A DNA stretch of 64,000 bases from Candidatus Versatilivorator sp. (GTDB lineage: Bacteria > Acidobacteriota > Terriglobia > Versatilivoradales > Versatilivoraceae): contig OZ242296.1 in the NCBI GenBank assembly GCA_965207735.1, forward strand, positions 1,376,001-1,440,000, in the 5' to 3' direction. The translations under genes and the position numbers were made by a program. Below the pieces are notes generated by a model. It ran no database searches, was not told where the DNA came from, and saw only the letters and a program-made list of their open reading frames with translations. Position 1 is the stretch's first letter. Each line of letters opens with the position of its first letter. Below are positions 18,650 through 38,914 of the stretch, piece after piece.

Positions 18650-19774
18650 GTGGCATATTCCGCACGCAACAGAATTAGAGCCCTGATCAGGAGCGCCGGC
18701 GTTGTCACGCTCCTGGCCATCAGCGCGCCAATGTACGCCGAAACCCTCTTTAACGGCCGTCCTTCCCTGATTCTGGAGGGCCAGGCCGCCCGGTTGGTGG
18801 TGGATCTCGGTGGAGGTTCATTGGTGGACTTCCGCTTGAGCGGGCACTCCGTCAACCCTCTCCAGTGGGACCCGGGGGAATCGGTGGTCTTGAAACCCTT
18901 GGGCCATTTCCTCTGCCTGGATCGCTGGGGCGCGCCCTCGGAAGCCGAAGAAAGCAACGGGATGTTCTTTCACGGGGAGGCTACCCGGGTCGAGTGGACG
19001 GTTCACGAGGGACCGGCTCGCAAGGGTGATGCCGTGGAAGCGAAAATGTCGGCCCTGCTTCCCATGGCCGGACTTGAGGTCTTGCGGACCGTTCGCCTGT
19101 CCGACTCCTCGGCGAGCTGCATCGTCTCCGAAAGCGTTACCAACAGAAACAAGCTGGGGCGTATCTACAATATGGTCCAGCACCCCACCATCGGCCCCCC
19201 GTTCCTGGACGAGGGCACCCTGGTCGACAGCAACGCGCGCAAGGGCTTCATGCAGACCAGCCCCCTACCCAACCCGGAGGAGCCGGCAGTGTATTGGCCC
19301 CAGGCGCTCAAACAGGGTCAACCGCTGTCGCTGCGCAGACTGGCGGACGACTCGGACCCCAACGTGGTCTCTTTTGTCTTTGACGTAGACCTTGGCTGGA
19401 TCACCGCCAGCAGTCCCTCGCAAGGGTTGCTGATCGGGTACCTGTGGAGCACTGCGGAGTACCCCTGGCTCAACATCTGGCGCCACTCGGAAAACGGCAA
19501 GCCGCAGGCGCGGGGACTGGAGTTCGGAACCAGCGGACTGCACCACCCCTTCCCGGTCCTGGTCGAGAAGGGCAGAATCTTCGGCCGACCGCTCTATGTT
19601 CACCTGGACGCCGGTCAGACCACGGTGCGGTCTTATCTGGCCTTCCTGTTCAAGATCCCCGAAGATTACCGGGGGGTGGCCGGCCTGACCTATCGGAGCG
19701 GCCGCCTGGTCATCCGGGAACTGGGAGGAAGCAGTGACCGGGACCTGAGCATGACCACCGGAGCCTTCCCTTAA
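18650..19774 (+). CDS. Secreted hypothetical protein, probable galactose-mutarotase-like fold
   Basis: Signal peptide; GHFLCLDRWG, HGEA, QHPTIG, RGLEFG. Confidence 0.6.
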   Translation: MAYSARNRIRALIRSAGVVTLLAISAPMYAETLFNGRPSLILEGQAARLVVDLGGGSLVDFRLSGHSVNPLQWDPGESVVLKPLGHFLCLDRWGAPSEAEESNGMFFHGEATRVEWTVHEGPARKGDAVEAKMSALLPMAGLEVLRTVRLSDSSASCIVSESVTNRNKLGRIYNMVQHPTIGPPFLDEGTLVDSNARKGFMQTSPLPNPEEPAVYWPQALKQGQPLSLRRLADDSDPNVVSFVFDVDLGWITASSPSQGLLIGYLWSTAEYPWLNIWRHSENGKPQARGLEFGTSGLHHPFPVLVEKGRIFGRPLYVHLDAGQTTVRSYLAFLFKIPEDYRGVAGLTYRSGRLVIRELGGSSDRDLSMTTGAFP

Positions 19775-20277
19775 ACAAACGACAAACGACAAAAGAAAAA
19801 GACTTATCCACGAAGGGGCACAAAGAACGACGAAGGGCCACCAAGGCGCTGGAGAAGGCTCAAGAGGGATGGGGCGAAGGTCGGCAAGGGGATCAAGGAA
19901 GGACACAAGGGACAAAGAGGATTTGTCCGCGAAGAAGCAACAAGGACTGCGGCGGAGCCAGTGGGGGGCGCTTCCGATCCCATCGTGATTTACAGGGATG
20001 ATTAACATCGATGCACAGGATTCACAGGATTCTTCAGGAAACGGCCAGCTTCTAATGCCGGGAATCCGCAAATCCGCACCGGATCATCGCCCGAGTTGGC
20101 TTCTGGTGCAGGAAGCTCTCGTCCTGTTAATCCTGTTAATCCTGTGCATTGATGTTCAATAGGTAGAAATCCATGCTAACCGAACAGGGTCCTTGTTCCC
20201 GACCGGCTGTGAAGATTCGTTGTTTCACTCTCGTATGATCCGCACGGCAGGGCGGGGGCTCGGCTTGCCTGAAACAA
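19765..20277 (+). repeat. Non-coding repeat cassette A, copy 1 (intron-free), bounded by a 14-bp imperfect direct repeat
   Basis: Shares the 5' block GACTTATCCACGAAGGGGCAC..AAGAACGACGAAGGG and a 39/40-nt 3' block with the intron-containing copy at 30202-32393. Confidence 0.8.
20002..20159. repeat. Palindromic ~160-bp MITE-like repeat (ACAGGAT type), copy 1
   Basis: Ends AACATCGATGCACAGGATTCACAGGAT / ATCCTGTTAATCCTGTGCATTGATGTT. Confidence 0.8.
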
Positions 20278-20334
20278 ACCCCTTGCGCCGGGTGGCTGGA
20301 GACCGGCTCAAGGTCAAGCATGGGTAGTTGGTTT

Positions 20335-20495
20335 ATTCACATGGATGCACAGGATGCACAGGATTTTTTCCGGAGACGGCTGGCTTGCAGTCCTGGACAT
20401 CCGCAAATCCACACTCGATCATTGAGCGAGTCTGCTTCCCGCGCGACGGCCTCTCGTCCTGTTAATCCTGTTTATCCTGTGCATCGATGTTCAAT
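20335..20495. repeat. Palindromic ~160-bp MITE-like repeat (ACAGGAT type), copy 2
   Basis: Same inverted ends and a similar interior (ATCCGCAAATCC, CTCTCGTCCTGTTAATCCTG) as copy 1. Confidence 0.8.
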
Positions 20496-30179: not shown

Positions 30180-30341
30180 TGGAGTCTCTCCTTTTCTTGA
30201 GTTGTTTTAGACAAGTCCCGCCCCCGCCCTGCCGTGCGGATCATTCGAGAGTGAAACAATCAGAAATCGACAATCCTTTCGCGAACTTGGTATCCCGTCA
30301 CGGTTAACCTCAGCGCCTTAGTGTCCCTTCGTCGTTCTTCG

Positions 30342-32336
30342 GTAGAGTCGAGGGGAGGCGCGCCGGCCTTAGATCGAGGGAGTCGCTGTTGCCGGCGGCT
30401 TTCGCCACTCGCCGGTGCCTCAATCTCGTTCCTCGCTGCGTTTCCTCGCCCCCGCTCGTCAAACCGGACGTGCGGTTTTCCCGCATCCGGCTTTCAGTCA
30501 AGATCATGCCTTCGCCCTCGGAAGGCTCTGTGGCTTCGACCCCAGGCAAGTGAGTCCATAGGTTTTCCATAGTCTCTCGTCCGAGAAGCGCACACTCCCC
30601 CCGGTCCTCACCTTGTGCTTCCGACAGAGCCACTGACGCAGCCGCCCGCCCGCGTGGCGGTCGATCGCTCGGTAGGCCGGGCTCACCTGCCCCAGAACGA
30701 AGTAGTTCGCCCACCCGGTCATCGCCCGGTTCAGGTGTTCTACCATCTGTCCTCGAAGCAGCGTCCCGTTCCTCGGCGCCGTCCACTCGCTGATCTTGCG
30801 GCAGATGCTCTGGACGCTCGCCTGGCTGGGTCGTGTGCCGATGTAGGCTCCTTTCCCTTTGGGGCGATAGTTGCGTCCGATGCGATATCCCAGAAACCCC
30901 ATCGGTTCCTCCGGACACCGCAAGCATCGGGTCTTCCGCTCGTTGACCGGTAGCTTCAGCTCCTCCATGATCCGCTTGACCGCCGTCAGCATCTCTGCCG
31001 CCGGTGCCCTGCCGAGTACACGGAAGTCATCCGCATAGTTGACGATCTCCGCACAGAAGCGCCGGGCATATCCCAGCACCTTCCAGCCCAAAACGAAGCG
31101 CCGCATGTAGAGATTGCTGAGCAACGGTGAGATCGGGGCTCCTTGCGGTGTCCCCTTCCGCTCCCGGCGCCCTCGGTTCCGGCGGCGTCTGCCACCCTTC
31201 CCGTCGTCCTCCTCCACCGGCATCTCCAGCCATGCCTTGATGAGCTTGAGCATCCTCCCGTCACTCACGCGCCGGGCAATGCTTCGAATCAGCTCCGCAT
31301 GCGGAATCTCGCCGAAGTAGTTGGACAGGTCGCCGTCAACCACCTCCTGGTAACCCCTTTGCAGGAGTTCATGCACGCGTTTGACCGCGTCGTTGGCACT
31401 CCGCCCCCGCCGATAGCCATATTGCTCCGGTTGCAGGTCCGCTTCGAAGATCGGCTCCAACACCAGCAAAGCCGCCGTCTGCGCTACCCGGTCCCGTATG
31501 CAGGGTATGCCCAAAGGCCGGAACTTGCCGGGCTGTTTCTTCGGGATCAGCACCTGCCGCACCGGCTTCGGTACGTAGGTTCCTTCCCTCAGGTCCCGCG
31601 CCAGTTCCCCCAGCCAGCCCTCCACCCCATACGCCTCGATGTCCTTGAAGCCCTCCCCGTCCACCCCGGCCGACCCGCCGTTTCGGCGTACCTGTGCCCA
31701 GGCTTCCTTCAGAAAGTCCTCTCGCCACACCTTGTCCGACAGCGCATGAAACCGCCGCTTGGGGTCCTCCTTCGCTTTCGCATGTAGCATGGTCTGGAAT
31801 TTCCGAACCCCCTCTGACCCTGTTAGACTCTTGTCAGTGGCCACGCCTTGCCTCCTTTCCATGCTGCTCTCAACTCAGGGTCCCTTCCCTCCACCGGCGT
31901 TACCCGGCTTCTCCGGTACTACCGACCCATCCGCCACCCTGACGGCCCGGCCTGCCCCTCGCGGGGTCCCGGTTGATGTGTGCCGCATCTCCCCCAGGGC
32001 TTCCCGTGTTGCTGCCTTCTTCCCCTTCCATGCGTGCCAGCGTCACTACCCCGACGGAAGCGGATCGGTGCCCGCGTCGCTCTCTTCCCCATCCGCCAAC
32101 GGCCTTCCCCTAAAGACAGGAGGGTCGGCTTCCGTATTGTCCGTTTCGAGGCCTGCTCGACGTTCACTCGCGTTCCGGCCCGCATGCTCGCTGAGCCGCC
32201 CTTGGCGGCCCTTGACCCCAGAGTGCTTCAGACCATTTCGTTACCTCCATGATCCGCCCTGGCTGCTACCAACCGGAGCGACAGTTGTTGGGCGGGGTTC
32301 GCACCCGCCAGAAGAAGGCGCCTTTCCACGGCGCAC
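30342..32336 (-). mobile_element. Group II intron 1 (RT-encoding, 1995 nt; class E/F-like, class uncertain)
   Basis: 5' GUGCG; domain V GAGAGCCGGAUGCGGGAAAACCGCACGUCCGGUUU; 3' CGACUCUAC; RT ORF in domain IV. Confidence 0.93.
30504..31862 (-). CDS. ltrA: Group II intron reverse transcriptase/maturase (no endonuclease domain)
   Basis: SAGVDG, RPLGIP.IRDR, GTPQGAPISPLL, YADD, FLGY, GWANYF. Confidence 0.95.
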   Translation of the reverse strand: MERRQGVATDKSLTGSEGVRKFQTMLHAKAKEDPKRRFHALSDKVWREDFLKEAWAQVRRNGGSAGVDGEGFKDIEAYGVEGWLGELARDLREGTYVPKPVRQVLIPKKQPGKFRPLGIPCIRDRVAQTAALLVLEPIFEADLQPEQYGYRRGRSANDAVKRVHELLQRGYQEVVDGDLSNYFGEIPHAELIRSIARRVSDGRMLKLIKAWLEMPVEEDDGKGGRRRRNRGRRERKGTPQGAPISPLLSNLYMRRFVLGWKVLGYARRFCAEIVNYADDFRVLGRAPAAEMLTAVKRIMEELKLPVNERKTRCLRCPEEPMGFLGYRIGRNYRPKGKGAYIGTRPSQASVQSICRKISEWTAPRNGTLLRGQMVEHLNRAMTGWANYFVLGQVSPAYRAIDRHAGGRLRQWLCRKHKVRTGGSVRFSDERLWKTYGLTCLGSKPQSLPRAKA

Positions 32337-32384
32337 TGCCCCTTCGTGGATAAGTCTTTTGTCTTTTGTCTTTTGTCGGTTGTT

Positions 32385-32762
32385 TCAGGCAAGCCCACCG
32401 CTGACCGGATTCCCCGACGCCACCCACTCCTTGTAGCCTCCCGCCATGGAGAACACGTTTCGGTAACCCATTCGCTGCAAGGCGTCGGCGGACAGCGCCG
32501 ACCGGTACCCCCCGCCGCAATAGAGAACAATCTCGGCGTCAGGGTCGGGCACCAGCGCCTCGATATCCCTTTCGATGATTCCCTTCCCCAGGTGGACGGC
32601 GCCCTCCGCATGCCCGCGAGACCATTCATGATCCTCGCGGATATCGACGAAGTGAAGGGACTGCCCCTTTTTCAGCTTTTCCCGCACCGCAGTTACCGAA
32701 ACCTCTCGAATTCGGGACTTGGCATCGTCGACCACCCGCAAAAAAGCCGCTGAGTGCTGCAT
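32385..32762 (-). CDS. Rhodanese-like sulfurtransferase
   Basis: DIREDHEW..GH, VLYCGGGYRSA, SMAGGY; ATG at 32762 (MQHSAAF). Confidence 0.9.
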   Translation of the reverse strand: MQHSAAFLRVVDDAKSRIREVSVTAVREKLKKGQSLHFVDIREDHEWSRGHAEGAVHLGKGIIERDIEALVPDPDAEIVLYCGGGYRSALSADALQRMGYRNVFSMAGGYKEWVASGNPVSGGLA

Positions 32763-32850
32763 TCCCCTACTCCTCGATCCCGACCACCCCCGGTTGCCGG
32801 CAGTGGAAGCCTCCCTCAAAATCGGAACAGCGATCCGCCTTCATCGAAAC

Positions 32851-33738
32851 TTATCGCGACACTACCTCCAACCCCGCTTCCACCGAAGCGGAAGCCGGGG
32901 CAAGGCGTTGGAAATCAAACAGCCCGGCATCCATCAGGTGCGAAGGGATCACATGCTTGAGAGCGGCCAGCATGGAGTCCCCGACTCTGGGATTCTCCGC
33001 CTGCAGCCGGGCGATCAACTCCTTGACCTCCTGACGCTTGAGATCCGGCTGAGAGCCGCAGAGGTCGCAGGGAATGATGGGATAGCCCATGTGGGAGGCG
33101 AAGCGGGCCAGATCGACCTCGCGGCAAAAGGTCAGCGGCCGGATGACGGTGTTGCGACCATCGTCGCTTCTCAAAACGGGAGGCATGGACTTCAACACCC
33201 CCCCATAAAACAGGTTCAGAAGCAGTGTCTCCAGAATGTCGTCGGCGTGATGACCCAGGGCGATCTTGTTGCACTCCATCTCGACGGCGGCATTGTAGAG
33301 GATGCCCCGACGCAGGCGTGAACAGAGCGAGCAGGCGGTGCCACCCTCCGGAATGTGAGACTGAACGATGGAATAGGTGTCCTTGGCCAGAATGCGGTAC
33401 TCCTGTCCCAGGTGTTGTAGATATTCGGGCAGCACCTCGGCGGGAAACCCCGGCTGCCTCTGGTCCAGATTGACGGCCACCATCGAGAAGGTGACCGGAG
33501 CCCGCTTCCGCAGGTCTCTCAGCAGCGTCAACAGGGCGTAGCTGTCCTTGCCTCCGCTCAGGCAGACCATGATCCGATCGCCCTCCGAGATCATGGAAAA
33601 GTCGGCGATCGCCTGCCCCACCTTTCTCAGAAGCCGCCGCCTCAGGCGTGGCAGATCCCCGCTGGAGGGTCTGCAAGCGGACGGCCCGGGCGCCGCGCCC
33701 GCCGTCCTCTGCTTGGGAAGCGTGTCATAGAGTCTCAA
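32851..33738 (-). CDS. ttcA: tRNA 2-thiocytidine(32) synthetase
   Basis: SGGKDS PP-loop, [25 protein letters not shown]; start uncertain. Confidence 0.93.
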
Positions 33739-37872: not shown

Positions 37873-38914
37873 GGTAAGGGCTTGTGGGTAACAGACGGCG
37901 CTGGGCATGCCCTGGCTTGTCTTTTTCCCTTCAGCGCGCACATGCTCCCTCGCACGTAGTGACCGCTACGCTCTTCGGTCGCGAGCACGCCCTGAAGGGA
38001 AAAATCCTGCGCCATGTTCATGCCCCCTGGGTAGAGTCGAGGACTGGCGCGTTGACTATAGGGTCCGGTGGCTATTCCGTCGCTTTCGCTTCGTGCCTCA
38101 GTCCGGCTCCCTTATCACGTTTCCAGTCCCCGCTCTCCGAACCGGACGTGCGGTTTTCCCGCATCTCGGCTCTCCAGTGGGATCATGCGTCTCGCACACA
38201 GGTCCCCGCTCGCATCCGTGGACGACTCCTATGGGATTGGCACCCGTCCCCCACTCCATCCACTTCCGCTCCCGGGTTGCCGCCAGGCCTGTTGATGCCC
38301 TGACGACGCCGTCCTCCTCCGACGACCCTTTCACTTTTGCATGTGATGCTTCCGGAGTCTCCGGCCCTTTTTTGGTCGGGGTTTCAGGCTTTCGCCACTC
38401 CCGGGACCCTTCCCCCTTCGGTCACCGCTCCTCACCTGAGGCCCCTTCCCTCCACCGGTATTACCCGGCTTCTCCGGTACTACAGGCCTCTCCGCCACCC
38501 TGTCGGCCTAGACTGACTCTCGCGAGCTTCCGGTTCGGTGCGTGCCTCACCACCCACAGGGCTTCCCATGTTGCTGCCTTCTTCCCCTTCCATGCGTGCC
38601 AGCGCCACTACCCCGGCGGGTCCAAAGGGGTGCCCGCGTCGCTCGCTTCCCCCTCCGTCTTCGGCCTTCCCCATTTCTCAGGTGGGTCGGCCCCCGCATT
38701 GCCCGTTTCGAGGCCTGCTCGACGTTCACTCGCGTTCCGGCCCGCATGCTCGCTGAACCGCCTTAAGCGGCCCTTTGACACCAGAGGGCTTCAGACCATA
38801 TCGTTACCTCCATGATCCGCCCTGGCTGCTACCAACCGGAGCGACAGTTGTTGGACGGGTTTCGCACCCGTTGGAAGAAGGCGCCTTTCCATGGCGCACT
38901 GAGAAATGCGGGCT
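37799..38914. mobile_element. MITE (247 bp without the intron) with 20-bp TIRs AGCCCGCATTTCTCACCAGG; right TIR split by intron 2
   Basis: Left TIR at 37799-37818; right TIR = 38026-38030 plus 38900-38914; internal inverted repeat TTTTTCCCTTCAG / CTGAAGGGAAAAA. Confidence 0.85.
38031..38899 (-). mobile_element. Group II intron 2 (ORF-less, 869 nt)
   Basis: 5' GUGCGCC; domains I-III highly similar to intron 1; domain V GAGAGCCGAGAUGCGGGAAAACCGCACGUCCGGUUC; 3' CGACUCUAC; short domain IV with no RT. Confidence 0.9.

Follow-up and report, generated by a model that had tools for sequence, protein, structure and literature searches.

The junction 19820/19821 of the window (the whole 64,000-nucleotide stretch analysed) is probably an unoccupied group II intron target in a miniature element (MITE) derived from an IS110-family element; the intron would enter such targets by reverse splicing at replication forks, for which this site is a low-odds one. 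The empty site is real, yet it is one of about 200 equivalent sites, and a single empty site is in itself ordinary. The window belongs to a genome of 5.26 Mb on one contig (G000), in which the intron family counts 45 elements: type A (13 copies at 99.5% identity or more, including intron 1 of the window), type B (28 ORF-less copies of 869 nt and one ORF-bearing relative), and type C (three elements). With a single intron and some 200 free, equivalent targets lying in either orientation of a closed genome, this is a natural homing system that can be counted.

Empty site and intron 1

The empty target site was located at 19801..19851 (+), with IBS1 (AGGGGCA) at 19814-19820 and IBS3 (C) at 19821; the sequence of this stretch was as given in the original prediction. 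The 20-base 5' exon of intron 1 has two exact matches in the window, 19801-19820 (+) and 32337-32356 (-) (none in 100 shuffles), the latter standing directly before group II intron 1. When the exons of intron 1 were joined, 48 of 51 bases were equal to those of the empty site, the differences being at +2, +18, and +22. The original prediction of an empty homing site of intron 1 in the same window, which fixes both intron boundaries, was thus borne out. Its claim of insertion without target duplication also held: in 12 of the 13 type A copies the exon ends were free of duplication, the two-base overlap at the thirteenth belongs to the target's own sequence, and for the copy at G000 2853090 the orthologous empty sites showed a clean insertion in all five congeners examined. 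The target had been described as a multicopy repeat and not a terminator, and we agree. It is non-coding, and neither a terminator-like site nor a promoter was found at the empty site in 19600-20400. Far from occurring only twice, the 20-mer has 322 matches in G000 at up to four mismatches (9 filled and 313 empty), and 11 of the 13 type A copies sit in the repeat, nine having the 20-mer within four mismatches in the 5' exon and two a looser or shifted match. The two ectopic copies, as well as the IS110 ends of the repeat, had been overlooked.

Intron 1 (32336..30342, - strand; 1995 nt) starts with GTGCGC and ends with CTCTAC. Rfam models RF02003 and RF00029 matched it above the gathering score (domain I and domains V-VI). 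The Rfam model places domains V-VI at 30342..30495 (-), with a 5-nt GAAAA loop in domain V and a long domain VI; the fold of this part gave a z score of -3.57, and that of the whole domain I was no better than those of shuffles (z = 0.46). The intron-encoded protein (30504..31862, -; 452 aa), intact in 12 of the 13 type A copies, has RVT_1 and GIIM domains, i.e., a reverse transcriptase (with YADD) and a maturase; no endonuclease domain was found in its 452 aa. EBS1 (UGUCUUU; 32112..32118, -) occupies a hairpin loop of domain I, and a weak candidate for EBS2 (UACGGAA; 32130..32136, -) was placed at the position of the 6-bp EBS2 of type B. Intron 1 thereby shows the marks of a mobile group II intron: domains I-VI with a GUGYG start and an AY end, an intact reverse transcriptase/maturase in domain IV, and a site defined by EBS1-IBS1 without target duplication. 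The near-identity of the copies suggests that type A was recently mobile. The sequencing runs used were labelled sponge metagenome and were consulted as assembled contigs, in which no splicing, circle, or junction product was seen; those of run X15, consulted for RNA evidence, cover intron 1 with a small word share and show neither its splicing nor its expression.

An absent endonuclease domain, a 5-nt domain V loop, and a long domain VI are features of class F in the wide sense, according to the available text of PMC3753933, and all three are present in intron 1. Judged from sequence, its protein appears closest to that of the class F intron Ni.ha.I1 (46.6% identity) among the three references compared, the other two being B.th.I3 (g2; 33%) and Sr.me.I2 (g1; 31%) and none being of class D or E. 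We call intron 1 class F-like, leaving the subgroup wide. Ni.ha.I1 (g3; PMC3552965, PMC3753933, as far as their accessible text goes) is also like intron 1 in its RT-X protein without endonuclease, GUGCG start, 5-nt domain V loop, last 11 bases, and length of about 2 kb. Membership of class C (terminator/attC) was rejected on the sequence-specific target and the lack of a terminator-like site in the region searched.

The 183-bp repeat and the IS110 element

A profile search of G000 gave 329 hits of the repeat at 237 loci, in head-to-tail arrays of up to nine units, with mixed strands in 1 of 53 multi-unit clusters. REP/REPIN identity was rejected on the weak fold and the near absence of inverted units. 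A linked gene of the GxxExxY type was likewise rejected, as a pattern scan of 22,186 ORF stretches, with what we take to be the motif, gave one spurious hit. The unit of 183 bp starts with TGAAACAA and ends in a 50-bp tail plus CTTGYC. The unit interrupted by intron 1 is divided into a 5' part (32337..32389, -; 53 bp of the 183) and a 3' part (30212..30341, -; 130 bp, ending in an IS110-type tail and the CTTG core). The empty site is held by a long variant (19771..20269, +; about 500 bp), composed of a degenerate left end, the target motif, extra cargo with a hairpin, and an IS110-type tail (20220-20269). Ten other copies of this variant were found (339-496 bp, 81-98% identity), one of which (G000 731651) is filled. 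At the empty-site locus, the long-variant insert is absent in G002, and a standard unit stands there in G005 and G009. The hairpin is an imperfect inverted repeat (20005-20160) with 50-100 related hits in the genome.

An IS110-family element (1693 bp, 10 copies in G000) has the same two ends as the repeat unit. Its whole transposase matched DEDD_Tnp_IS110 and Transposase_20, and a 70-aa piece gave no Pfam match. The repeat tail and the IS110 end aligned over 54 columns with four mismatches and one 4-base gap. Both IS110 ends bound 228 units: 159 standard, 23 minimal (about 68 bp, the two ends fused), and the others longer. Contigs of runs X3 and X4, as well as the congener G002, were without precisely 2178 bp at the intron 1 locus, the length of the intron and a 183-bp unit together, and the crossover falls in CTTG. 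This indicates that the repeat unit is itself mobile, with IS110-type junctions. This presence/absence is resolved to the base at one locus, in two runs and one genome; the other loci are consistent and less clean. The go-back joints in the contigs fit tandem arrays as well as circles. In sum, the repeat has ends common to the autonomous IS110 of the genome, precise presence/absence, a short core, and no long duplication, and is likely to be a non-autonomous IS110 derivative (MITE). The IS110 recombinase with its bridge RNA would move it in trans through the CTTG core. Neither IS110 end was found at 80 of the 313 empty heads; thus, the target motif extends beyond the MITE and is older than it or independent of it.

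In all 10 IS110 copies a repeat unit follows directly; this, together with the core motif present without IS ends and with REP sequences being known IS110 targets (PMC12288879, available text), could also mean that the repeat is independent and REP-like, and that IS110, like the intron, simply uses it as a target. We consider this unlikely, since the 10 IS copies all carry an identical tail and the repeats varying ones, the tail type is common to the IS copies of each congener, the minimal units are two joined IS ends, relatives lack exactly the unit, with the crossover in CTTG, and the fold of the unit is weak, unlike that of a REP palindrome. The homing conclusion would stand in either case. 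As for the intron, its absence together with the unit at the intron 1 locus and the retention of both ends in the filled unit could be taken as traces of one or a few homing events followed by spread through gene conversion between repeats or as MITE cargo, the 2178-bp unit having IS110 ends on both sides. This is very improbable and, as the main route, largely refuted: the exons vary among filled copies whose introns are nearly identical, two copies occupy unrelated sites, one of which is precisely empty in 5/5 congeners, the repeat of the 731651 locus is empty in congeners, and the fork bias (see below) is common to type B, which sits in other elements. Apart from intron 1, six of the 13 filled sites were followed through orthologous flanks, the locus at 4625974 being uninformative for want of its far flank.

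The motif AG(A/G)CAAG occurs twice upstream of the IS110 transposase. With the guide layout taken from the available text of bioRxiv 10.1101/2025.10.25.684509, the two motifs may be read as a bridge RNA's putative guides for target and donor, that for the target being aimed at the element's own end. The left flank ended in AG(A/G)CAAG, which is also the element end, in 11/11 further IS110 copies from four congeners. A sister IS110 (G008 and G013) has AGGTCAG as first motif and a left flank ending in GGTCAG or GGTTAG in 9/9 copies; its second motif is as before and agrees with the right end. The guide reading rests on this one guide switch, and no right-hand guide sequences were identified in the IS110 element. 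A target guide matching the own end would explain the repeat beside all 10 IS copies, and the arrays. Many repeats were found in G009 and G011, with no full-length copy of the element among the matches listed. IS110 bridge RNAs (bioRxiv 10.1101/2025.10.25.684509, 10.64898/2026.08.31.748434; main texts as available) are similar in that an upstream non-coding region has two motifs matching the left halves of target and donor, and different in that here both motifs have the same sequence, which matches the end of the element itself; in those papers, donor-like "half-match" insertion is a minor, off-target pathway. The likely self-targeting guide and the sister with changed guide and target would offer a testable case of natural bridge-RNA reprogramming. 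This lead, on an IS110 with a first putative guide matching its own end and on the sister in which that guide has changed, covers L001 (G000 3044553-3046245) and L183-L202. The target flank of the sister consists of short TGGTCAG/TGATCAG tandem repeats in G008 and G013, and the latter genome also has a head-to-tail IS dimer (L132).

Target choice and orientation

EBS1 (UGUCUUU) and IBS1 (AGGGGCA) form four Watson-Crick and three G-U/T pairs. Full pairing with EBS1 and C or T at +1 were found in 194 of the 313 empty 20-mers, and about 5% of the suitable repeat sites are filled. In the whole genome, 21,515 sites pair with EBS1 and agree at +1; 4,845 are intergenic according to the gene calls made in the present analysis, and only 194 are repeat heads. 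Despite this, 9 of the 13 insertions are at repeat heads (11 with the two looser matches), and 0/121 of the second sites that pair equally well, situated 20 bp deeper in these repeat units, were used. These numbers indicate that EBS1 is insufficient and that the bases at -20 to -8 matter, perhaps through the weak EBS2 or through the protein. EBS2 pairing is poor, only GGA being able to pair with TCC at -14 to -12. The intron ribonucleoprotein may read the target through EBS1 (-7 to -1), EBS3 (+1), and further 5' bases at about -20 to -8.

The intron 5' end (87 matches) and the repeat motif were found in 12 of 13 congeners and in none of the 27 more distant genomes searched. Junctions were read for 86 of the 87 matches, with EBS1 readable in 69. 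Pairing without mismatch over six bases was observed at 59 of these 69 (mean 21 and maximum 30 in shuffles; the copies are not independent), and EBS1 and target thus covary across the congeners. Position -3 is mismatched at one junction (G005, L099). The position within the 183-bp repeat is the same for eleven junctions from six congeners, and their five EBS1 alleles mostly follow the local repeat allele. Within one genus, the same intron scaffold carries at least 10 EBS1 alleles matched to different element ends, which amounts to a natural record of retargeting. We tentatively propose a chain of three tiers, which we hold possible though somewhat short of even chances: an own-end-guided IS110 renews the 183-bp arrays, and an intron lineage specialised there retunes its EBS1 as the repeat drifts between hosts. 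If so, the 183-bp miniature would be a self-replenishing homing site for the intron lineage.

The cumulative GC skew had its minimum at 3,540,555, beside dnaA, and its maximum at 729,361. Fork direction was assigned with a two-replichore model anchored on dnaA; the local 100-kb skew (co-oriented type A, 7/13; type B, 23/28) was noisy, and for this reason the model was used. The introns lie in the fork direction in 38 of 45 cases (p = 3e-6; type A, 11/13; type B, 24/28). Co-orientation was more frequent at filled than at empty sites, both for type A (9/11 versus 80/194; Fisher p = 0.011 with n = 11 copies, p = 0.021 when the copy adjoining the terminus is omitted) and for type B (26/31 versus 59/167; p = 6e-7). 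A segment of reversed GC skew (G000 3,984,694-4,507,578) is a recent inversion or an assembly join, and allowing for it (3.98-4.51 Mb) changes the strand bias little. The upstream gene is in sense for 8/13 type A and 17/28 type B introns; transcription as the cause of the strand bias was rejected on this small bias relative to neighbouring genes. An intron without endonuclease would prime its cDNA from the nascent lagging strand, and such priming would leave it co-oriented with the fork. A fork-priming bias, previously observed for class D introns in plasmid assays, is here seen in the wild for a class F-like intron.

The weak EBS2, the two ectopic copies among 13, and the dispensability of EBS2 for class E/F splicing (PMC3753933, available text) might suggest that there is little specificity beyond EBS1, selection clearing non-repeat insertions and the strand bias reflecting transcription or selection; we give this hardly any credence, as repeat heads make up only 194 of the 4,845 intergenic EBS1-compatible sites, the second sites left unused are in the same neutral repeats, and orientation tracks the fork and not the flanking genes.

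Preferring reverse splicing at forks, we return to 19820/19821. The site is on the plus strand in a minus-leading replichore; it therefore faces against the fork and is a low-odds target. With the observed proportions taken at face value, the chance of receiving the next insertion is about 0.13% per site of this type versus 0.87% per favoured site. Two of the 11 filled repeats are against the fork, so an insertion here may still occur. The designation of 19820/19821 as a predicted future insertion point was overstated, the site being 1 of 194 empty sites that pair equally with EBS1 and the +1 base, and in the disfavoured orientation. It is predicted to be among the less likely next targets, and the original prediction is a weak one; intron junctions at this locus, also proposed to be sought in related strains, were found in 0/5 congeners.

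Related introns and known systems

Types B and C differ from type A in EBS1 loops and targets. Intron 2 (type B; 38031..38899, -; 869 nt) is an ORF-less sister with EBS1 UGAGAAA and targets, instead of the 183-bp repeat, the terminal inverted repeat of an element presumed from its DDE_Tnp_1_4 match to be of IS1380 type, and the miniatures of this element. At G000 2734834, 2999332, and 5247114, IS1380-type elements are inserted at CTAA/CTAG inside the repeat, and some of them later received type B introns, which makes the repeat a shared landing site. The target of type C is a palindrome, and several copies are near phage-integrase genes. Type B outnumbers its only ORF-bearing relative (G000 5004992; protein 83% identical to that of type A) 28 to 1.

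The best-matching known cases are taken from the available text of the papers cited. RmInt1 (target ISRm2011-2) and RmInt2 (target, the inverted repeats of ISRm17) of Sinorhizobium meliloti, for both of which a preference for the lagging-strand template was shown (PMC4615759, PMC5894124), resemble type A in being endonuclease-less, homing into a multicopy mobile element with a bias to that template, using ectopic sites, having related introns with different targets in one genome, and forming head-to-tail dimers. They differ in being of class D, type A being class F-like; their targets are a transposase gene or the end of a DDE element, whereas that of type A is a short non-coding unit, likely IS110-derived, with about 200 free sites (about 5% filled). 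The repeat, in turn, resembles MITEPpu9/ISPpu9 of Pseudomonas putida (PMC12288879) in being short, having IS110 ends and a short invariant core, and standing beside its parent and alone, sometimes in tandem. MITEPpu9 has 8 copies (versus about 230-330 here), has a gene for a small RNA, and uses REPs as insertion sites, and the text of that paper that is available mentions no intron in it. ORF-less companion introns were already known (PMC4424553), and both element types are mentioned, with no link between intron and miniature in the available text, in PMC4853749 and PMC6053426. In the literature searched (few subscription papers; bioRxiv without supplements), no group II intron was reported to home into an IS110-derived miniature, nor any intron into a MITE, REP, or interspersed repeat; a sequence look-up of the 183-bp repeat also had no result. 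Homing into a multicopy IS, strand bias, ectopic sites, ORF-less companions, and an IS110 MITE are each known singly; their combination is unreported in that literature.

Several further introns are of note in their own right. In G004, G005, and G008, the repeat motif targeted by type A also harbours ORF-less introns of 860-864 nt with a type A-like EBS1 (L042-L044, L047, L079). In G011 (155437-159432; L058), two full introns stand head to tail, as described for RmInt2. A remnant of 117 nt (G000 4261108-4260992), still in a type C target, is made up of the first 84 bases of an intron and the last 37 of one of another type. The ectopic type A copy at G000 2853090 (L006) separates, in sense orientation, the ATG of a conserved gene (about 440 aa) from its ribosome-binding site; translation of that gene would depend on splicing or a new start signal. 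In G005 (L129), a type B intron in an IS-end repeat stands right after the same rhodanese-like gene as intron 1 (about 32820-32865 of the window); this intergenic spot has been used independently by introns in G005 and in the genome of the window.
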